Assembly: GCF_003018235.1 (NCBI RefSeq) | Contig: NZ_CP027437.1 | Strand: one strand, 5' to 3' | Source: Escherichia coli | GTDB taxonomy: Bacteria > Pseudomonadota > Gammaproteobacteria > Enterobacterales > Enterobacteriaceae | DNA length: 64,000 nt | Part shown: positions 21,296-36,218 of the stretch, piece by piece | Layout of the letters: every line of letters starts with the position of its first letter | Position numbering within the stretch: the stretch's first letter is position 1 | The notes under the pieces: generated by a model | What the model was told of the DNA's origin: nothing | Databases searched by the model: none | Seen by the model: the letters and a program-made list of their open reading frames with translations, nothing else | Translations under genes and position numbers: made by a program

Positions 21296-21346
21296 GCCTG
21301 ATGCGCTTCGCTTATCAGGTCTATGTATGCCGGATAAGGCGTTTAC
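21296..21346. repeat. REP/BIME: one complete palindromic unit plus the left half of a second unit that is split by the IS; right half resumes at 22779-22797
   Basis: gcctgatgcgcttcgcttatcaggtc and gccggataaggcgtttac | ... | gtttacgccgcatccggca; joining the flanks restores a canonical REP palindrome. Confidence 0.8.
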
Positions 21347-21876
21347 TGAACTGCACCCCAAATGTTGGACACAATCTGACATCTGAAGGTGCAGTTTATG
21401 AAACATTCATTTGAAGTAAAACTTGCCGCTGTAAATCATTACCTGGCCGGTCATGCAGGCATCATTTCTACGGCAAAACTCTTTCAACTTTCTCACACCA
21501 GCCTCTCACACTGGATTAATCTTTTTCTTCTTCACGGTCCTCAGGCACTGGATTGCAGACACAAGCGTAGCTATTCTCCTGAAGATAAACTTTGCGTGGT
21601 TCTTTATGCTCTCGGGCATTCTGAGTCTCTACCCCGGGTAGCTGCCCGGTTTAACATTCCCAGCCACAACACGGTTAAAAACTGGATAAAAGGCTACCGC
21701 AAATCTGGTAATGAGGCCTTTATCAGGCGCAGGAAGGAGAAAAGCATGACCCGTTCTGATGATACCCATGAAAACGAGGCAAACATGACGCCGGAAGAGA
21801 TGAAGAATGAGCTGCGTTATCTTCGCGCAGAAAATGCATATCTGAAAGCCATGCAGGAGCATCTCCTGGAAAAAAA

Positions 21877-22778
<902 letters not shown>

Positions 22779-22809
22779 GTTTACGCCGCATCCGGCAACC
22801 TGACATAAA

Positions 22810-23829: not shown

Positions 23830-24399
23830 GTGAGCCAATTCATTCCCGTCGAATTACACCATGCCAGCCGTCTGTTAAATCATGGCCCAACAGTCATGAT
23901 CACCAGTTTCGATGAGCAATCCCAGCGGCGTAACATTATGGCTGCAGCCTGGTCGATGCCGGTGGAGTTTAAACCTCCACGCGTCGCGATTGTGGTAGAT
24001 AAGTCGACATGGACCAGGGAGTTGATTGAGCGTAACGGTAAATTTGGCATCGTTATCCCAGGCGTTGCAGCGACTAACTGGACGTGGGCAGTGGGAAGTG
24101 TATCTGGGCGTGAAGAGGATAAATTTAATTGCTATGGCATTCCGGTGGTGAAAGGTCCGGTGCTTGGTTTGCCACTTGTTGAAGAGAAATGTCTGGCGTG
24201 GATGGAGTGCCGATTGCTACCAGCGACTTCCGCGCAAGAGAAATACGACACGCTGTTTGGCGAAGTGGTATCAGCAGCGGCAGACGCACGGGTATTTGTC
24301 GAAGGCCGCTGGCAGTTTGATGATGATAAGCTCAATACGTTGCATCATTTAGGCGCTGGCACGTTTGTTACCAGCGGCAAGCGAGTCACCGCTGGCTAA
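23830..24399 (+). CDS. yddH: Flavin reductase-like domain protein (189 aa), GTG start
   Basis: GTG at 23830; flavin reductase-like sequence. Confidence 0.85.
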   Translation: MSQFIPVELHHASRLLNHGPTVMITSFDEQSQRRNIMAAAWSMPVEFKPPRVAIVVDKSTWTRELIERNGKFGIVIPGVAATNWTWAVGSVSGREEDKFNCYGIPVVKGPVLGLPLVEEKCLAWMECRLLPATSAQEKYDTLFGEVVSAAADARVFVEGRWQFDDDKLNTLHHLGAGTFVTSGKRVTAG

Positions 24400-24465
24400 A
24401 GAATCATATGCAGCAACGAAGTTGCGTAAGCAATGTTTCAATATGAGTTAAAAGCATATTTTATT

Positions 24466-25029
24466 TCACGATTGCATATTTTTAGTGAAGATTAATTTAT
24501 CCTCACCAACATCATAGTAATTGCGTATTATAGCTTCATTGATAAAGCCCTGTTTTGTATAAAATGCGCGGGTGGCACTAAAATCGACATAGCTGGAGGT
24601 CTCTACTAAAAGTAGTCTTGCGCAGGGAAAGGAGAACGCACTAATGACATGAATCGCTCCCCTGCGGCGACTCTTGTCATAAGAATGCCGGAGCGTTTTT
24701 CCATCAATTGCAATAACGTCTTTATCATCTGAAGAATGGCAGTCACGCATCCAGTTAATAAAGCACTCGTGAAATTTTGCAGGACTGATACAGGATACAA
24801 CTCTGGCAATGGTATCGTGAACAGAAATACCATTTTCAAAATCACCATATTGCTTCAAAAAATCGAGATGTGTTTCCCCAAAATCCTCTATATCTTCCCA
24901 GCCTTCTGCACCAGAAACAACGGCACAAATAGTCAACAGTAGAATATCAGACAATTTATATTCCACTTTCCAGGCTTGTCTGTAATCGGGGATAATAGAA
25001 ATATGTTCCATCAATTTTTTAAGTTCCAT
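24466..25029 (-). pseudogene. Truncated H-repeat (ISAs1-family) transposase N-terminus (~137 codons, 24619-25029) fused in frame to an unrelated ~50-codon 3' remnant
   Basis: [50 protein letters not shown]... matches H-rpt proteins up to ...AIHVISAFS, then diverges to ...[15 protein letters not shown]... (GNAT-like C-terminus). Confidence 0.75.
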
Positions 25030-25236
25030 TTTGTTCTCCTTAATTATGTAAGGAGTATTTGATCATGTATACGCAATAAAAAACAGCTTCAGGTAATGAG
25101 GAATATCTCAATTTTTAAACATAAAATGCGAATTATTTAGTACAAAAAATCAGCGTTACGTAATCTTTCCCTGATTAAACAGGTGGTTAAAGGAATGAAG
25201 GTGGGGATATCCGGCGTATTGAAAGAAGCATAAAAA

Positions 25237-25274: not shown

Positions 25275-25559
25275 TTAGACTTCTTCTATTTCATATTTTA
25301 TAGACAATTCATGAAAGGCAGTAAATACCAGTGAAAATAATTTATCTCTATCACTTCCATTTAAATTATTTACAATGAAAAAACCATCCTCATGATCTTC
25401 TATTGAAAAATCAATCCAGTTTGAATAACTAGATGGAATCCAAAGTGAACCATCAGTATTAATCCGAGAGGATGGTTGATTTTCTTTTATTCTCTCGACA
25501 ATAAAAGAAAGTAAATTATCTACTTTATCATCAACATGTATAATATATTCAACACTCAT
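25275..25559 (-). CDS. Putative immunity protein for the orphan Rhs toxin tip (94 aa)
   Basis: Small AT-rich ORF 12 nt downstream of the orphan rhs-CT; no recognisable domain. Confidence 0.55.
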   Translation of the reverse strand: MSVEYIIHVDDKVDNLLSFIVERIKENQPSSRINTDGSLWIPSSYSNWIDFSIEDHEDGFFIVNNLNGSDRDKLFSLVFTAFHELSIKYEIEEV

Positions 25560-25571
25560 TAATTTCTTGCC

Positions 25572-26024
25572 TTATGCGCCGCACCCATGGGCTCGCCCTC
25601 GTTTTGTAGGATAATCATTTGGATTCCTGATCCCTATGTGTGTTTCATTCGGATTAGTACTCGGAATGCCTCTGTCATTCAGAGGTACCTCACCGGGATC
25701 ATATTTATGCACATGTGCGTTAGCCCCAGACTTAGGTAATGGATCACCGTTTTTCATCGTCATACTTTGATTTCCATAGGGATCGACACGAACTTTAGAG
25801 CCATCAGCGTGACTCCATGTCTGATTCCCGGTACTTGTTTGTTTATCCAAATTGAATCCATTATCAGTAAGAATAGAACCTATTGCCCCTGGGGATCTTC
25901 CTTTTAATTGAGGCAAATCAGAGGCGGCACTTAATCCAAGAGGATCTATCCATCCAAGAGGGTTAGGCGCATAAGCATACAGGTTTAACCCACCCGCCAG
26001 CCCTATCGGATCAGTACACAGATA
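25572..26024 (-). other. Orphan rhs C-terminal cassette: core-end remnant (DPIGLAGGLNLYAYAPNPLGWIDPLGL) plus a distinct ~115-aa toxin tip; no canonical start codon
   Basis: Frame is open from the stop at 26027-26025; 25931-26010 is nucleotide-homologous to 27001-27080 of the main rhs; track ORF start is a non-ATG (TTG) codon. Confidence 0.75.
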
Positions 26025-26138
26025 TTACCACGTCTCGCAATCATAGTACCGGAACCGATGATAGTACAGTCCCGCGTCATGCTATTAAAGACAATGTAGT
26101 GCGATGATATGTGTCATCCCTCAATTATTTTTATAAAA

Positions 26139-26646: not shown

Positions 26647-29600
26647 TTACTTACCCTTTTCATAAATGGGGCCTGCTGTCGATGAATCAATTGGGAAACC
26701 GTGAAAAGTCCCATCCCCATTATTTCTGACCCGAATTTTATCCGGTTTAATAGGTACTCCATTTCCTCCGGGAATATAAACTTCACTCTTACTATTTTGA
26801 TTTATAGGAAAATCTTTCATCTCATCCGGTTTTAGCGTGGCAGCTTGTTCTCCAGCATATTTCAGATCATCCTTGCTTCTCCAAACTCCATGAGGATTCT
26901 TTTCTTTATCTGCAATTGCTTGAGCTGCGTTAGGATGTAGTTTCATCCCATGCCTTTTCCCTCTTGAGTAACCATTCTCGGCTTTTAAGCAGGTGGGATT
27001 TAATCCAAGAGGATCGATCCAACTTAAAGGATTCGGCGCATAAGCGTACAGGTTTAACCCGCCTCTCAGCCCTATCGGGTCCGTTACCATGAACCGCCCG
27101 ACATCCGGATCATAGTACCTGTGCAGATTGTAGTGCAGCCCCGTTTCCCTGTCGAGGTACTGTCCCTGGTAGCGCAGGTTCTGCTCCACCCCGCCGTGGT
27201 CCTTCTCCTGTATCGTGTTACCCCAGACCTGATACCCCGTCTCCCACACGATTTTCCCGTCACTGTCCGTCATCTCTTCCGGCGCGCCGTTCACATCCGT
27301 GTGAAAATACAGTATCCGGTTCAGGCCCTCTTTACCCACCTTATCCACCCGCGCCAGCGGTTCATAACTCCCCGGGTCGCTGTAGATATACAGGCTGCTT
27401 ATTCCCTCCGGCCTGCTCTCCTGCGCCAGCCGCATTCCGTCCCATAAAAATGTCGTCCGGTTGTACGGTTTACCGTCAGGGCTGATGTGCTGTTTTTCCG
27501 TCCGCCTCCCCAGCGCATCGTACACATACCGGTACGTTCCCCGCGCTGTCGTCACTTCCACCATCCGGTGTTCCGCATCATAACGGTAACTCTGCGTGCC
27601 GCTCCGGCCCTCCTTTTCCACCGCACGGCCAAATTCGTCGTAACGGTAGTGCACACCACGGTAAGACATCAGCCGGTTGAACGGCACCACGCTGTTTTCT
27701 GCCGTGGCCCTTTCCCCCGCGCGCCGCGCCAGCAGGTTTCCCGCCGCGTCGTACTCCCAGCTCGCCAGATACCCCTCATCCTCCGAGCGGCACGCCGTGA
27801 TGCGCCCCGTGGGGTCGTAGAAGTAATCCGTTTCCCCCCGCCGGCTGTGCCGCGTCTTCAGCAGTTCATCCTCGCCGCTGTAGCTGTACTGCCGGTCCGT
27901 GAACGTCTCCGGTACCACCCCGCGCATCCCGCTGTATGTCTCCCTGCGCTTCAGCCGCCCGGCGGGGTCATAAAGCTGCCGCGTGCTCAGTCGCCCCTGA
28001 CTTCTGAGCACTTCCCGGTGCAGGGCGTCACGTGTGAACTCGCTGATGACCTCCCGGTCCAGATTTATCTGCTGGAGATGGCCGCTGCCGTAGTACAGAT
28101 GACGCTGCGTTCTGCCGTCCGGAAAGGTGGTGGCTGTCCGGTTGCTGAGTTCATCGTACTGATGGGTCAGGACGCCCTGCGCCGTCTCCTCAGTCAGCAT
28201 CCGCCCCAGTCTGTCGTAACTGAAGCGGATAATCTCCGGTGCGTCCATTTCCCCGGCATCCGACCGTCGGCGGCGGATTTCCAGTAGCTGGTCTGCCGCA
28301 TCATGGACGTATTCCGTACGGCTATCGGCTGTCTCCTTTGCCGTGAGCCGGCCCGCCGCATCACGTGCCAGCCGGTGGCGGATTTCACCGCCCCGGTCCC
28401 CTGTGAACACCACTTCCGTGACCGCGTTCAGCACGTTGTAACGGTACGTCTGGCGGCAGCCGTCCGGATTTATCTGCTCCGCCAGACGGTCCAGCACATC
28501 ATGGCGGAACCGGTAGTTTTCTCCGTTCTCGTTCGTGAGCGTGACCAGACGCCCGTAAGCATCGTACCCGAACGCCGTCCTGCGCCCCGTCGCGTCTGTC
28601 CGGCTGCGCACCCGGCCCTGCCCGTCCCGCTGCCAGCGCGTTATCCTCCCCATCGGGCTGGTGTACTTCACGAGCCTGCCCGCCGCGTCCGACTGGTAAT
28701 TCACCGTGCGGCCGTCCGCCAGTATCACCTCCGTCAGGTGGCCGCTGTCGTCATACCCGTAGCGCGTGCTGTGGCTCTGCGCGTCTGTCATCCGTATCAG
28801 CCGCGTGCGTTCGTCGTAGAACCAGGCCGTCTGCGAGCCGGAACAGTCCGTGTGCCGCATGAGCTGTCCGTCTTCGTTCCACTGAAGGTATTTATTCCCC
28901 CCGCGCGCATCCGTTATCTGCACCACCTGACCGTGGCGGTCATACTGATACCGGGTGTTCTGCTGCAGCGGGTCGGTCACCGCAAGAAGATTGCCGCGTT
29001 CATCGTACTCACAGCACCAGCTGTTCCCCGCCGCGTCCACCTCCGTTTCCGGCTGGTGCCACACCGGGTGCCACTGTGTCTGTGCCACCCGCCCCAGCGG
29101 GTCGTGCGTCTCCGTGATATGCCCCTGCCGGTCATACACATAGCGCCATTTGCCGCCCTGCGCATCGGTCATTCCCAGTAACAGCCGTTCTTCGTCGCTC
29201 CAGCGGAACGTCGTCACCTGCCCGGCTTCGTCCTGGTACGCCGTCACCTGGTTCTGCGCGTCCCACTGATGATAACGCGTGCGCCCCAGCCCGTCCGTCA
29301 CGCACAGCCTGCGTGCCGCGAGGCTCCACGCCAGCCGGTACTGTTCACCGCTGTCCGTGTGGTGCCCCGTCACCCGCCACGCTGCGTCATCCGGGCCTTC
29401 ATACCAGCCCCACTGGTAATAATACCCTTCGCCGCCCGGCTGGCGGTGCAGGGTCATGCAGTGGTTTTCGTCGTAAGCAAACTCGCGCAGCAGGTGCCCC
29501 GTGCTGTCGTACACGCCGTTCAGGTCGCCGGCCTCGTCATAGCGGTAACGACGCAGCAGTAAAGGAGCCGTCTCAGGGAAATGCTGATAAATCTGTGTCA

Positions 29601-31311
29601 CCCGCCGGGGATGCGCCGCCAGTTCATAATGCAGACGGATGCACGGACGCTGCTGTTCACCGCTGATTTGCGTGATGCGTCCCCGGTCGTCGTAGTACAG
29701 ATTCAGACAGTTGCTGTTGCGGTCGCCCAGCATTTTCAGCCGCTGGCGCTGCGGGTGACGCGGGTCGGCCTCAAACAGAAAAAACTGCCCGTCATCGCTG
29801 CTGATAAGCCAGTGCCCCTGCTCACCCCGCCGTACTGCCAGTCCTTCGCCGGGGCTGTAAAACCCGCTCCCCGGCAGCACGGCCTCCATATCCAGACGTC
29901 GTCCCATGCCCGACACAAAGGTCATACAGTTTTCGTCAGCAGTACCCGGCGTGCGCTCGAGGCTGACTTCATACATCACGCTCCAGCCCTGCCCGAACAT
30001 CCCTTCCGTGCGGTCGTCACGACTGCTGTACACGCGCTGCCAGTCCAGCGGAAAGTGGCCCGGCAGACTGAAATCGAAGTCATCGTCATCCGCCAGATAT
30101 TTGGCTCCGGTGGCGGCATTGACCGGATGCGGAAGGGCACTGATGGCCTTCTGCGTCATCACCCCCATCCCGACACTGGCAGCAAAACAGGCGATTTTAG
30201 AAAGCATTTTGCCCGGGCGAAGAAACATCAGCGCCACGGTTGCCACCAGGGTTATCTGCGACCTGCCGCTTCTGATATCCCTGACCACCAGTAACGGACC
30301 GCCAATGCGGACATCCGGTGACACAAACGCCCCGTTCCCCGGCTCATTCACCACCCTGGCCTCGCAGGTACAGCGTGCCCCGCTGCGCGCCGCCGGCTGG
30401 CTGTTGATACGCACATCCCGCGCGCCTTCCGCGATATATTCCGCTGCGGGCGGTTCATCATCGCCTTTGAACAGATTACTGATGCTGCCAATAACCGCAT
30501 TCACTCCCTGAAAGGCGGTTTCCAGCATACCGCCCGGACTCAGCAGGTTAAGGGCCGTTCCCAGAGGGTCATCCAGAAAGGCGGCTTTTTTTTGTGCGAG
30601 AAACTGCGTCAGTGAGGAGGGATGTTTATGGCAGTCGATTTTATCGTCAGGGGTCGGGGTGGAGCCCGGGGCCGCACTGGCCACGGTGGGCTGCCATAGT
30701 TCCGACACAAAATGTGTCACGCCATCCACCATTTCAGAACGCCCTTCTTCCGTACTGAGCTGGTCATGCAGCGCCCGGGACATCAGCACAGGCCCTGTCA
30801 CCGGGTTAACCGCCAGGGCTATGGCCCCCGCCATTTCCAGATATTCCCCGGCCACATCCCGGAACGTTCTGGCGTCCTCCTGACGCTGCGCTTCTTCCTG
30901 TTCCGCCTTCGCCTGTGCCTCCTGCGCCTCAATGTCCTGCCGCGATGCCGCAGTCGCCGCGGCCCGCGCGGCAGGTTTGCTGTTGATCCATGTGTCGCCA
31001 GAGCCGGTGAGGATGTAACCTTCAATCTGAGGCGGGAAAAGCCAGTTCGCCAGTTGCTCACTTTCCCTACTGATTCGGTCATTCCAGCCCTGATACGACA
31101 TAAATACCGCTGTTGCTATACCGATCGCTAAAATGGTTGAGCAGCCCAGCGTTGCCACTTCAACTCCGCCCAGCGCCGCCATGGTTCCGACAACCAGAAC
31201 ATCCACCAGGGCTGTGGCGGCAACCTCTACAACTGCCCCCAGCACATCTGCCATAAACGACGTATGCAGCAGGGCATCACCCTGCCTTGCCGCCCAGAAT
31301 GCCTCTTCCAT
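26647..31311 (-). CDS. Rhs-family polymorphic toxin / T6SS effector (1554 aa): prePAAR motif, N-terminal TM region, PAAR region, YD-repeat shell, PxxxxDPxGL, ~110-aa C-terminal toxin tip of unassigned family
   Basis: N-terminal AARQGDALLH motif; hydrophobic segment ADVLGAVVEVAATALVDVLVVGTMAALGG...; two PAAR tetrapeptides; numerous YD repeats; DPIGLRGGLNLYAYAPNPLSWIDPLGL before the tip. Confidence 0.9.
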   Translation of the reverse strand: MEEAFWAARQGDALLHTSFMADVLGAVVEVAATALVDVLVVGTMAALGGVEVATLGCSTILAIGIATAVFMSYQGWNDRISRESEQLANWLFPPQIEGYILTGSGDTWINSKPAARAAATAASRQDIEAQEAQAKAEQEEAQRQEDARTFRDVAGEYLEMAGAIALAVNPVTGPVLMSRALHDQLSTEEGRSEMVDGVTHFVSELWQPTVASAAPGSTPTPDDKIDCHKHPSSLTQFLAQKKAAFLDDPLGTALNLLSPGGMLETAFQGVNAVIGSISNLFKGDDEPPAAEYIAEGARDVRINSQPAARSGARCTCEARVVNEPGNGAFVSPDVRIGGPLLVVRDIRSGRSQITLVATVALMFLRPGKMLSKIACFAASVGMGVMTQKAISALPHPVNAATGAKYLADDDDFDFSLPGHFPLDWQRVYSSRDDRTEGMFGQGWSVMYEVSLERTPGTADENCMTFVSGMGRRLDMEAVLPGSGFYSPGEGLAVRRGEQGHWLISSDDGQFFLFEADPRHPQRQRLKMLGDRNSNCLNLYYDDRGRITQISGEQQRPCIRLHYELAAHPRRVTQIYQHFPETAPLLLRRYRYDEAGDLNGVYDSTGHLLREFAYDENHCMTLHRQPGGEGYYYQWGWYEGPDDAAWRVTGHHTDSGEQYRLAWSLAARRLCVTDGLGRTRYHQWDAQNQVTAYQDEAGQVTTFRWSDEERLLLGMTDAQGGKWRYVYDRQGHITETHDPLGRVAQTQWHPVWHQPETEVDAAGNSWCCEYDERGNLLAVTDPLQQNTRYQYDRHGQVVQITDARGGNKYLQWNEDGQLMRHTDCSGSQTAWFYDERTRLIRMTDAQSHSTRYGYDDSGHLTEVILADGRTVNYQSDAAGRLVKYTSPMGRITRWQRDGQGRVRSRTDATGRRTAFGYDAYGRLVTLTNENGENYRFRHDVLDRLAEQINPDGCRQTYRYNVLNAVTEVVFTGDRGGEIRHRLARDAAGRLTAKETADSRTEYVHDAADQLLEIRRRRSDAGEMDAPEIIRFSYDRLGRMLTEETAQGVLTHQYDELSNRTATTFPDGRTQRHLYYGSGHLQQINLDREVISEFTRDALHREVLRSQGRLSTRQLYDPAGRLKRRETYSGMRGVVPETFTDRQYSYSGEDELLKTRHSRRGETDYFYDPTGRITACRSEDEGYLASWEYDAAGNLLARRAGERATAENSVVPFNRLMSYRGVHYRYDEFGRAVEKEGRSGTQSYRYDAEHRMVEVTTARGTYRYVYDALGRRTEKQHISPDGKPYNRTTFLWDGMRLAQESRPEGISSLYIYSDPGSYEPLARVDKVGKEGLNRILYFHTDVNGAPEEMTDSDGKIVWETGYQVWGNTIQEKDHGGVEQNLRYQGQYLDRETGLHYNLHRYYDPDVGRFMVTDPIGLRGGLNLYAYAPNPLSWIDPLGLNPTCLKAENGYSRGKRHGMKLHPNAAQAIADKEKNPHGVWRSKDDLKYAGEQAATLKPDEMKDFPINQNSKSEVYIPGGNGVPIKPDKIRVRNNGDGTFHGFPIDSSTAGPIYEKGK

Positions 31312-31329: not shown

Positions 31330-31782
31330 TTAATTCGTCCCGGCTTCCTGCCGCATCCTGAAGCGCAGATTCTTTTTAATTTCAGCCCAGCGCGTCATAT
31401 CTGCCGGGGTCAGCGGTGTGGTTCTGGCGTAGGTGAAGGCCATCATGACCCGCTCACCCGGCAATACAAATGCCACCTGACACTGGTACACCTGCTCGTT
31501 ACCCCGGAGAAACTGGCTCTGTATTTCCAGTCCTTCTTCACCGTCATTAATCCCCACCCGTGTTACCTGAACGGGCGTGTAGTGAAGATCCTTTACCTGT
31601 TTCTCCAGTTTTTTCATTTGCTGTTCAATCTGGGAGGCTAATTCGTCTCCTTCCTGCATCTGGCCCCGGCTGATAATGAGTGCAGCGTCGGGATCGCTGA
31701 GGCGCAGCATATTAATAGTACTGTCCTGAATAATATTCCCGGAAAAAGTTACAACAGTTTCATTGAGATAATACTCCGTCAT
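31330..31782 (-). CDS. DUF1795/Eag-family chaperone for the prePAAR effector TM domain (150 aa)
   Basis: Size and position between vgrG and the prePAAR rhs match Eag chaperones; family assignment is by context and recall, not by search. Confidence 0.65.
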   Translation of the reverse strand: MTEYYLNETVVTFSGNIIQDSTINMLRLSDPDAALIISRGQMQEGDELASQIEQQMKKLEKQVKDLHYTPVQVTRVGINDGEEGLEIQSQFLRGNEQVYQCQVAFVLPGERVMMAFTYARTTPLTPADMTRWAEIKKNLRFRMRQEAGTN

Positions 31783-33763
31783 AATGATATGAGTCCTTTT
31801 AAATTAATAAATTATTTAATGATGGTTTTTGTTTATTTTTTAGTCATGAAGGCGACATCTATCGCCAATTGAAGGGCTGTTTTTTCCGATGTTCCAGGCG
31901 GAAGTATATCTGCCGCCCTGTTATTCATATTTAAATCAAGCTGACCTGATTGTGTATTTATCTTTCCATTTTCTGTTGCAGTAATATTAAAATTCTTACA
32001 GGTTATATTAAATATTCCGTCACTGGTCATTTGCAGGATAGTGTTCCCACAACTAAGAATTATGGAATCTCCCGCAGCAAGGCGTAAATTCTGTACGGCC
32101 TGAATCGTTTTATTTTGTCCGGCAAGGGAGGTATCATCCATCTGAACTGTAAGAGAACGTTCCTCACCAATTATCGCTGTTTCTGTTTTATCAATGACTT
32201 TAAGGCGATTATTGCCCACCCAGTGGCTTTCATTATTATTTACTTCAATCCGCTGATCTTTTTCGGCATGTAGCCAGACCTCTTCACCGCCAGGTTTATC
32301 CTCAAAACGTAGTGCGTTGGCATTGGTTGGGCCGCCGCCGATAGTGTGACTGTAAAATCCGCTTTGCGTCGCTGCGCCCGGTAGTCCCCACGGTGGCATG
32401 GTGTCCTGGTTGTAGGTACGCCCAACAATTATCGGTAAATCCGGATCACCGTTTTTGAAATCCACCAGTACTTCCTGACCAATGCGCGGGATCTGAATGC
32501 CACCGAATCCTTTACCCGCCCACGGATAACTGACACGGACCCAGCAGGAACTATTTTCGTCATTCTTACCGTAACGATCCCAGCCAAACTGAACTTTCAC
32601 CCGGCCATATTTATCTGTCCAGATTTCCTGCCCTGCCGGGCCGGTGACGATGGCGCTCTGCGGGCCTTTAGTGTGGGGTTTGCTCAGGGTTCGTTGTGGG
32701 CGGTAAACTTCGCTGGTGGGATGCAGTTCAAAGCTGGTTGAGTAAGAGAAATGCTGCTCCTGGCCGCTGTGTTGCGCATTGTCCTGTATAAATAGCGTGG
32801 TCTGTACCAGCAGATATTCCCGGTTCACTTCGGCTGTCGGATAGTTTTCCAGGATGAAGGTAAAACCTGTCATCAGGGTACGAATATTGCCGCTGCCCTG
32901 TACCCGACTACCTGGGCTACGCTGTTCTTCCATGCGAATGCGTGTCAGCATTTCACCTTCACTCTTTGTGAAGTAATCTCCCGGCCATTCGTAGTGCTCA
33001 TATTCAGCAAGGCCGGTTTCACGCGGATTAGCCACGGTGCTCTTCAGCAGTGAACGCGGCTTCATAAAGTCGAAATCATTCAGCACCCACTGTCCACTGC
33101 GCAGACTTTCATTTGCTGTGATGGTATGGATAAACTCCTTGTCCAGTTTCAGCCCTTTCTGGTAATAACACACCAGCGGCGAATCTGCGCATGCCTTGTG
33201 GACATTAATGGCATCAGCCAGCACTAACGTGTGACTGTTCTCGCTGTGCTCAAACCACCAGTAGATACCCCACTCCTGCATCAGGCGCTGAACAAAATCG
33301 AAATCTGTTTCACCGTACTGCACCTGCCAGGCGCGAGTCGGATAATTTTCCACCAGTCGTTTTTCCACTGGCCAGGGGTACTCATCCAGTACCTCATCCA
33401 GGATCTCCACCACGTTTTTATTCTGAAACGCTTTGTAGTCACTAGTGTGGGTCAGTATTTTTAACCACGGTTCGAGCCGCAGTTCATACACCACCGAACG
33501 TCCTTGATGACCAGCCACGCGTGCCGCCGTCACCAGCCCGCTGATATAACGTTTTCCGCCGCCATCCAATTCGATATTGACGCACAGATCTTTGCCCACC
33601 ATCGGTTTGAGCTGCAGGTTGGCTGCGGGGGAAACATAGCCCAGGTTCAGGATGTCAGGAGTTTTTAATTTAATAGAATAAGTAAATAGTTCCCCTACTG
33701 TTTCTGTACCCCCTAAGCTTGCAAACAGTAACATGATCCTACCCACGTAATGTGGACACGGCC

Positions 33764-34618
33764 CTAAGCGAGATTATGGTTTTCAAATTGTTCCGGGCTG
33801 AGACCGCCACAGGCACTGTGACGACGCCAGCGATTGTAATCACTCTCGATATAATTAAACACCGTTGCCCGCATTATTTCCCGGCTGCTAAAGCGTTCCC
33901 CGTGGATACATTCCACCTTCAGCGAATGAAAGAAGCTTTCCACACAGGCATTGTCATAACAGTAGCCTTTCGCACTCATACTGCCACGCAGGTTGTGTCG
34001 CTTCAGCATTGCCTGATAATCCCCTGAACAGTATTGACCACCACGGTCCGTATGAACAATGACGTTTTCCGGGCGTCTTCTCCGCCACAACGCCATTTGC
34101 AGTGCATCACAGGCCAGTTGTGCTGTCATTCGCGGTGACATCGACCAGCCAATGACGGCGCGTGACCACAGGTCGATGACTACTGCGAGATACAACCAGC
34201 CCTCATCGGTACGCAAGTACGTGATGTCACCCGCCCACTTCTGGTTCGGGCCACTGGCGCTGAAGTCCTGCTCCAGCAGATTCTCCAATACGGGCAGGCC
34301 ATGTGCACGGTAGCTGACCGGGCTGAACTTCCGGCTGGCTTTCGCCCGCAGCCCCTGACGACGCAGGCTGGCGGCAATGGTTTTAATATTGAACTCCGGC
34401 AGTTCGTCAGCAAGGCGGGGAGCACCGTATCGCTGCTTTGCCTCAAAGAATGCCTTATGGACAGCGGCATCGCAGGTGAGCCGAAACTGTTGGCGCAGGC
34501 TCATCTGGTGACGACGCCTGAGCCAGACATACCAGCCGCTGCGGGCAACCCGAAGTACACGACACATCGCTTTGATGCTGAACTCTGCCCGATGATTTTC
34601 GATGAAGACATACTTCAT
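33764..34618 (-). CDS. insF: IS3 transposase OrfB (DDE integrase core; made by -1 frameshift from OrfA)
   Basis: rve-domain sequence ...[34 protein letters not shown]...; overlaps orfA end. Confidence 0.9.
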
Positions 34619-35295: not shown

Positions 35296-35652
35296 TTATT
35301 TGATATGATTATCATCAAGTCTTAAAATACGTTCTCCGGTTCTAATTATGTTAAAACCATAGTATTCTTTTTTACTTTCGGAAGAGAGCATATATTTCCC
35401 GATATACATAACATCTGAAGATAGCTCACTTATATCAATACATACGGGTTCGAACTGACCTGTCACTCTTTTCAACTTTATTGCATTGCCATATTTACCT
35501 TCATATAAAACATAATTTGAAATAATATTCCCATCGTCTGGTTTTGAACAAATCTGTCCGTCTTGCAAATATACACTACCGGGTAACAATGGGCGAACAT
35601 AATCACCAACAGTGCATCCCGACAAAAAGAAAAACAAAAAGAATCTCTTCAT
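35296..35652 (-). CDS. Predicted outer-membrane lipoprotein (118 aa); candidate immunity protein for the upstream HExxH protein
   Basis: Signal peptide plus lipobox MKRFFLFFFLSG-C; Thr at +2; ATGA overlap with the upstream gene. Confidence 0.7.
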   Translation of the reverse strand: MKRFFLFFFLSGCTVGDYVRPLLPGSVYLQDGQICSKPDDGNIISNYVLYEGKYGNAIKLKRVTGQFEPVCIDISELSSDVMYIGKYMLSSESKKEYYGFNIIRTGERILRLDDNHIK

Positions 35653-36218
35653 ATGACACCCGCAGGAAATAAATTAAGCACCTTTTTGTATTTTTCCGAT
35701 AGAGTGTTCACTGATTCAGTTGTATCACCTACATAGTTAACATTTGCCAAATCAGCCACCAGTCCATAGTTAATTAATAGCCAATAATCAGCAACTATAG
35801 ATGCTTGTTGTTCCATGGAATAAGAAGAAATTGACTGTAAATTAAGATCGTAATGATAATTTGCCGCCCAAGAAAATAAACCACGCAACTTAACTGCATA
35901 CCCTTTCTGATATTGCCAAACATGCATCATTTCATGAATAAACAAGTGAGAAGCACCTGCTACTGTTTCACGATCACCAGGCATTGCTTGCGATGAATAA
36001 TCTGAACTATAAACAGCATCAGGATAATACATTTCCCCGTTTGGGGTCATCGCTGTTCTTTCCCCTTGACCAGGCAAATATTTTTCATTGTGGATCCATA
36101 CCTTGCTATAATCAATTGTATTCTCAAAAATCGATCTGGCCAATGTTAATTCACCAGATGTCATTCTCCTTAATGACATATCCTTTCCCCTGGAAATAAT
36201 ATCTTTCAGATAAAACAC
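35649..36218 (-). CDS. DUF4157-like zincin metallopeptidase-fold protein with HExxH motif (189 aa); candidate antibacterial effector
   Basis: Motifs IDYSKVWIH ... GEMYYP ... SHLFIHEMMHVWQYQ; no signal peptide; translationally coupled to the lipoprotein ORF. Confidence 0.65.
   Translation of the reverse strand: MFYLKDIISRGKDMSLRRMTSGELTLARSIFENTIDYSKVWIHNEKYLPGQGERTAMTPNGEMYYPDAVYSSDYSSQAMPGDRETVAGASHLFIHEMMHVWQYQKGYAVKLRGLFSWAANYHYDLNLQSISSYSMEQQASIVADYWLLINYGLVADLANVNYVGDTTESVNTLSEKYKKVLNLFPAGVI

Follow-up and report, generated by a model that had tools for sequence, protein, structure and literature searches.

An ISEc1 transposase fragment reading into a GNAT acetyltransferase remnant beside yddH, at the edge of an Escherichia coli Rhs island

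In the stretch of Escherichia coli DNA analysed here (64,000 nucleotides; the window), an open reading frame of 187 codons lies between yddH and an Rhs/type VI secretion (vgrG) island, at the yddH-proximal edge of this island. As judged from alignments of its two parts, the reading frame is a chimera of a 5' fragment of an H-repeat (ISAs1-family, ISEc1) transposase gene and a 3' remnant of a GNAT acetyltransferase gene. It is very probably a non-functional scar of two dead genes that was formed stepwise, by abutment of an IS end and by an internal deletion of the IS. H-repeats (ISEc1) are the usual companions of Rhs elements, and the features of the locus are given below.

23830-24399, plus strand: yddH, flavin reductase family (Pfam Flavin_Reduct), a conserved core gene bounding the island
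24400-24465: 66-bp spacer that separates the convergent stops of yddH and GNAT remnant and belongs to the GNAT-type haplotype (homology to K-12 ends at 24399)
24466-25029, minus strand: chimeric reading frame, 187 codons plus stop (ATG to TGA); residues 1-133 from the ydcC homologue, residues 134-136 F-P-C, residues 137-187 from the GNAT gene
24466-24621, minus strand: 3' remnant of the GNAT acetyltransferase gene (codons 105-155 plus stop), by homology to intact GNATs
24622, minus strand: single C between the right repeat tip and the GNAT homology, shared with the EC1-type allele; G in intact GNAT genes
24623-24631, minus strand: tip (9 nt) of the right inverted repeat of ISEc1 (CTTTCCCTG in gene orientation), an exact inverted copy of 25165-25173
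24632-25029, minus strand: first 398 nt of the gene for the ISEc1 transposase, a ydcC homologue (codons 1-132 and two further nt); the blastn match to K-12 ydcC stops at 24632
25030-25173, minus strand: ISEc1 left end by homology to other copies, with terminal inverted repeat CAGGGAAAGATTACG... (outermost base 25173), 144-nt leader and Shine-Dalgarno AAGGAG (25036-25041)
25275-25559, minus strand: putative immunity ORF of 94 aa, downstream of the orphan Rhs tip
25572-26050, minus strand: orphan Rhs C-terminal tip (degenerate core end with stops, 114-aa toxin-like tail), immediately upstream of the IS left end
26647-31311, minus strand: PAAR-DUF6531-RHS gene (Pfam)
31330-31782, minus strand: DcrB-family gene
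31833-33746, minus strand: vgrG

Anatomy and homologies of the reading frame

The first 133 residues are identical to residues 1-133 of K-12 YdcC (378 aa) at 127 of 133 positions (95%; BLASTP), and BLASTP gave no match between the reading frame and YdcC past residue 133. The domain DDE_Tnp_1_assoc (PF13808) is complete at residues 8-94 (E=6e-32, profile positions 2-88 of 88), whereas residues 29-134 cover only positions 1-106 of the 314 positions of the NCBIfam ISAs1 transposase profile NF033564, which full-length K-12 YdcC covers completely (1-314/314). The full ISAs1 catalytic region is missing from the reading frame, and PF01609 was unmatched when the reading frame was searched against Pfam and NCBIfam.

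Residues 137-187 align with residues 105-154 of an intact GNAT from Salmonella (P0012; 39/50 identical, 78%, E=1e-25) and with the same residues of an intact GNAT from E. coli R32_14_1F (45/50, 90%, E=1e-29). On its own, the 54-aa tail had no Pfam match and only a weak NCBIfam match to rimI (E=0.017), and its GNAT ancestry is hence established through longer, near-identical relatives and through the intact homologues. A search with these last 54 residues returned short E. coli proteins, some of which reach further upstream with GNAT Pfam domains, and these longer relatives pass the gathering scores of PF13508 and PF00583; together with the identities of 78% and 90% over 50 aa, this identifies the tail as homologous to GNATs. 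In the relatives P0003, P0008 and L007, the acetyl-CoA-binding motif A (QRQGVG) is encoded upstream of the breakpoint, and the window remnant lacks it. The original prediction had proposed about 137 H-repeat residues and a GNAT C-terminus of about 50, close to the 133 residues plus three junction residues and the 51 residues found by alignment to YdcC and to intact GNATs, and these alignments separate two unrelated parts with breakpoints that can be placed in the DNA: ydcC homology ends at 24632 and GNAT homology begins at 24621.

Between these breakpoints lies the end of the IS. In gene orientation, the junction reads ...GCGTTCTC, followed by CTTTCCCTG, a single C and GCAAGACTACTTTTAG..., and the 9 nt at 24623-24631 are all that is left of the 3' 749 nt of ISEc1. 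The tip of the left repeat, CAGGGAAAG, is found in the 64-kb window only at 24623 (plus) and 25173 (minus) when both strands are counted, and a repeat finder independently reported the 24623/25173 pair (inverted repeat I8). The same right repeat tip variant ends full-length ISEc1 copies on two other contigs (L001, position 5431; L015, position 841), and on the left side homology to the ISEc1 copies of K-12, LR-28, Rb-23 and 18KM2445 runs out at 25173-25179. Terminal repeats of this family start with CAGGG and lie about 1.3 kb apart; here the left repeat is complete at 25173, the right one is reduced to its outer 9 nt, and the two span 551 bp (24623-25173) as compared with 1291 bp for the ISEc1 of K-12 (L004, 7673-8963). 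The internal deletion is thus 740 bp, its junction has no microhomology, and the reading frame crosses the repeat tip as F-P-C and is by chance in phase with the GNAT remnant. Judged from its ends, the element is an ISEc1 with both extremities still in place, shortened internally by 740 of its 1291 bp and lying against a GNAT gene that was already truncated.

Compared with the K-12 ISEc1/H-repeat (ydcC, b1460, RhsE element), the left repeat (CAGGGAAAGAT...), leader and ribosome-binding site match, and both copies sit at the same place, on the yddH side of the island that lies between yddH and ansP. In contrast to the K-12 copy, the 551-bp window copy lacks codons 134-378 as well as the right repeat beyond 9 nt, and reads into foreign DNA.

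Three perfect 9-nt inverted repeats were found in the surrounding 1.1-kb stretch, and the argument from the right repeat tip consequently rests on its position and identity and not on its bare existence. The junction sequence GTTCTCCTT (24629-24637) is also perfectly complementary to the ribosome-binding region AAGGAGAAC of the reading frame (25033-25041). Chance alone would give about two 9-nt inverted repeats of this kind per 1.1 kb, so this complementarity is probably meaningless.

The GNAT gene and its place beside yddH

The GNAT 3' remnant with the 66-bp spacer is present in 660 of 5426 complete E. coli genomes, where it is nearly always unannotated. About two thirds of these genomes (90-95% identity band; e.g. 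Nissle 1917 and UM146) carry a nearly full-length GNAT pseudogene, and in about one third (95-99% band; e.g. EC1) the allele breaks off where that of the window does, with unrelated DNA upstream. The E. coli assembly L007 has a GNAT gene of 155 codons with one in-frame stop, convergent with yddH. With this stop read as Trp, the protein passes the gathering scores of PF13508, PF00583, PF13673 and PF08445, and the reconstructed protein matches at least 30 intact GNATs of 154-157 aa from Salmonella, Enterobacter, Phytobacter, Kluyvera, Citrobacter, Serratia and others. Relative to such RimI-like N-acetyltransferases of 154-157 aa (Salmonella enterica P0012; R32_14_1F WP_422112259.1), the window remnant is without the first 104 codons, including motif A.

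In L015-type genomes, the DNA found upstream of the EC1 breakpoint is the natural spacer ahead of the GNAT gene, indicating that the EC1 allele is a deletion of about 465 bp from this spacer into codon 105; a relationship of this upstream DNA to the DNA of the window was considered and rejected for the same sequence. The window tail is 97.5-97.8% identical to the EC1-type allele as compared with 93-94% to the near-complete pseudogene allele, and we infer from these identities that the IS-stub allele arose within the EC1-type lineage. At the breakpoint (24613-24626; about 4086-4097 in L007), the GNAT gene has GGCAAGACTAC, which matches the ISEc1 right repeat GGCAAGATTAC at 10 of 11 positions and lies exactly where the EC1-type deletion and the IS end both fall. 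This sequence might be an inverted repeat-like target or hotspot; its score was equalled somewhere in the GNAT gene in 48 of 500 shuffles, and for this post hoc observation the position alone is striking.

Intact GNAT genes were found at places other than yddH. In R32_14_1F (L012, 4689-5347), the gene lies beside flgN, lysine-N-methylase and glycosyltransferase genes and is followed by ISAs1 fragments, and in Salmonella (L013, 5001-5468) it lies in an integrase/AlpA/CbtA-CbeA island. Since intact copies occupy these other loci, the GNAT gene appears to be a mobile accessory gene.

The absence of pptA, which the original prediction had noted and placed next to the scar, was borne out by tblastn and blastn searches that covered the whole 64-kb window. 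Among the 5426 complete E. coli genomes, 4653 have pptA (4084 at ≥80% coverage), always beside yddH; some 570 genomes have a partial match only. Because the counts of 4653 and 660 are roughly complementary, the GNAT gene and pptA look like alternative haplotypes beside yddH. Hence the lack of pptA was correctly seen, but its loss would not be the work of the scar: as the genome counts indicate, it is a common alternative haplotype. A related arrangement is found in E. coli of the Rb-23 type (L002, 4101-4170), in which the right end of ISEc1 abuts a pptA 3' remnant (about 60 nt, ending ...EIAPQMETLIKKPGYSM and a stop) beside yddH. In Rb-23, which has the other haplotype, a full-length IS is inserted into pptA and pptA is the truncated gene, whereas in the window the IS is internally deleted and the truncated gene is GNAT.

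Distribution of the junction and variability of its flanks

Comparison with other E. coli genomes recovered the exact junction twice among the 5426 complete ones, namely in LR-28 and E7-1N7. Draft and metagenome assemblies added a protein cluster of 17 members, and five further contigs, originating from different samples, carry the junction as well. All carriers share the same F-P-C junction, which indicates that it arose once. Over the reading frame, nucleotide identity to the window is 97.7% in LR-28 and 94.7% in E7-1N7. Two copies are decayed: in E7-1N7 the frame shifts at about codon 21, a stop comes prematurely and codon 2 is changed from GAA to GTA (E2V), and P0067 is frameshifted at the junction. 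RefSeq/PGAP annotates the copies in LR-28 (AABJ59_RS11735) and E7-1N7 (RMO93_RS12845), which have the same junction beside yddH, as 'ISAs1 family transposase, incomplete, missing C-terminus', labelling the transposase part only and leaving the GNAT tail and the right repeat tip unannotated, and GenBank lists the LR-28 copy as a hypothetical protein (BEA35780.1).

On the other side of the stub, the DNA past the IS left end differs between LR-28, E7-1N7 and the window. The left flank is the orphan Rhs tip in the window and in the contigs L019 and L020, an IS1 fragment with small ORFs in LR-28 and L017, an IS3 fragment followed by a DUF4123/VgrG/PAAR module in E7-1N7, a full ISEc1 in L016, and gnd with glycosyltransferase genes in L018. 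In L018, the DNA may really have been rearranged, or the assembly may be misjoined across the IS. A shared stub with variable cargo suggests that cargo exchange may occur at the IS, which would agree with the association of H-repeats with Rhs tips (PMC3032704).

The IS fragment (24623-25173) lies downstream of the Rhs gene and the orphan tip, the position typical of an H-repeat, these repeats being a component of Rhs element tips (PMC3032704). Neither the 114-aa toxin-like tail nor the 94-aa ORF matched a Pfam or NCBIfam family, and the orphan-tip DNA (25275-26138) is rare, with partial matches in only two of the 5426 complete E. coli genomes. Homology to K-12 stops at the yddH stop (24399) and resumes only at 24632-25173 (ydcC) and then at ansP (about 36962); K-12 yncG and yncH were unmatched in the window, and narZ of the window is 98.7% identical to that of many E. 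coli strains. No Rfam match was obtained between 21000 and 27000.

Further mobile DNA lies on both sides of the locus. An IS3-family element in the yddE-nhoA intergenic region (21328-22797) is 98.8% identical to IS1397 of EC1 and sits at the same site as in EC1 in opposite orientation, and overlapping matches of 35-44 bp at each end suggest flanking palindromic repeats. Directly past vgrG lies an IS3-family transposase ORF with rve domains (33764-34618), unrelated to the IS1397-like copy, and a 189-aa ORF without a family match precedes ansP (35649-36218).

Origin of the scar and possible function of its product

The order of events and the absence of function that we infer are the following. 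A GNAT gene of 155 codons, which survives as a nearly complete pseudogene in some E. coli, would once have been convergent with yddH; its codons 1-104 would then have disappeared from one E. coli lineage. An ISEc1 of 1291 bp would have come to lie with its right terminal repeat directly on the GNAT truncation point, and a deletion of 740 bp inside it would have removed transposase codons 134-378 and the right repeat except for its last 9 nt. The frame would since run on from the leader and ribosome-binding site of the IS through F-P-C into the GNAT remnant, giving an ORF of 187 codons. Its predicted product would combine the transposase N-terminal domain, without the ISAs1 catalytic region past profile position 106, with a GNAT C-terminus from which the acetyl-CoA-binding motif is missing; lacking both, it should be able neither to transpose nor to acetylate. 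A synthetic query for a full-length ISEc1 with its right end on the same GNAT breakpoint (CTTTCCCTG joined to CGCAAGAC) found none in the 5426 complete genomes, and two apparent full-coverage matches to this query came from an unrelated locus, in which an intact GNAT is followed by an ISAs1 fragment. Two observations count against this account. No more than 1-2 nt separate the IS end from the deletion junction of the much commoner, IS-free EC1-type allele, which has to be taken as a coincidence. Most recovered copies keep the 187-codon frame open, and among seven intact copies the apparent omega is about 0.28, below what would be expected of a neutral pseudogene.

The junction might instead have formed in one step, if a single deletion or illegitimate recombination had joined ydcC codon 133 to the GNAT gene, the 10 intervening bases being filler or diverged flank. 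The EC1-type allele does have CCTGTCCC 14 nt upstream of the same GNAT breakpoint, resembling CCTTTCCC of the window, and perfect 9-nt inverted repeats are, as counted above, not rare in this stretch. However, the 9-mer matches the element's own repeat tip at all nine positions and exactly at the junction (a given 9-mer at a given position has a chance of about 4e-6), it has no other occurrence in the 64 kb, the same tip variant is the natural right end of full-length copies, and derivation from the EC1 flank would take both a substitution and an indel where the rest of the region is 97.8% identical. With the right repeat tip lying between the transposase and GNAT parts, we consider a one-step origin by a single fusion deletion unlikely. 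A deletion or recombination scar at the Rhs edge next to yddH, as originally proposed, was thus found, but in all probability not as one direct joining deletion. Two readings that would do away with a scar altogether have next to no probability. If the C-terminal segment were a normal part of some H-repeat protein, there would be no chimera, but full-length YdcC aligns over residues 1-133 only and has nothing resembling the tail, which itself aligns end to end with the C-termini of intact GNATs that lack a transposase part; nothing in favour of such a natural tail turned up, and it was ruled out on these alignments. An assembly misjoin across the repeated IS is just as improbable. It draws some support from the metagenome contig L018 (ERZ1310784, 1-4564), in which the IS left end of the ORF meets gnd and O-antigen glycosyltransferase genes and which may be misjoined, but the right-hand junction of IS fragment, GNAT remnant and yddH is identical in two independently finished genomes and in the five further contigs, ruling out an artefact at this junction.

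By analogy with other IS families, in which truncated transposases act as trans regulators or inhibitors, the chimeric ORF could be expressed and useful, its presumed DNA-binding N-domain acting in trans as a regulator or inhibitor of other ISEc1 copies. In support of this, the IS left end has stayed intact together with the ATG and its ribosome-binding site AAGGAG, the N-terminal domain is complete (profile positions 2-88 of 88), at least 12 distinct variants keep an open frame, and omega is apparently low. Against it stand the broken frames of E7-1N7 and P0067, the rarity of the junction (2/5426 complete genomes) and scans for promoters and terminators that gave nothing above chance. Among seven intact copies, 15 synonymous and 16 non-synonymous changes segregate, and substitution analysis of these copies gave no convincing sign of selection for the product. 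The H-repeat part has 22 variable sites, 11 of which carry alleles that are also seen in six full-length IS copies, and this sharing points to gene conversion from functional IS copies; the other 11 sites are private, seven of them non-synonymous and four synonymous. As a test of function, dN/dS is confounded by gene conversion with other IS copies and rests on very few sites, and counts of open frames are biased because protein databases take in open frames only, so that the low omega may be explained by gene conversion together with the ascertainment of open frames. An expressed and useful product is in our judgement very unlikely. We give similarly little credence to the conjectures that the 187-aa product is kept as a trans-repressor of ISEc1/H-repeats or that the IS stub persists because it anchors recombination by which Rhs/T6SS effector cargo is exchanged exactly at its left end.

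In summary, the ORF is real, very probably non-functional and an ordinary pseudogene of already known kinds, and its H-repeat part is already known from RefSeq, where it is annotated as a partial ISAs1 transposase pseudogene. For annotation, it is better labelled as a pseudogene, a truncated ISEc1 transposase reading into a GNAT remnant, than as a hypothetical protein. Beyond annotation its import is small: the ORF neatly marks the edge of the variable Rhs/vgrG island on its yddH side, and a shared right junction with differing DNA past the IS left end is in keeping with the long-standing view that H-repeat elements are involved in Rhs reshuffling.
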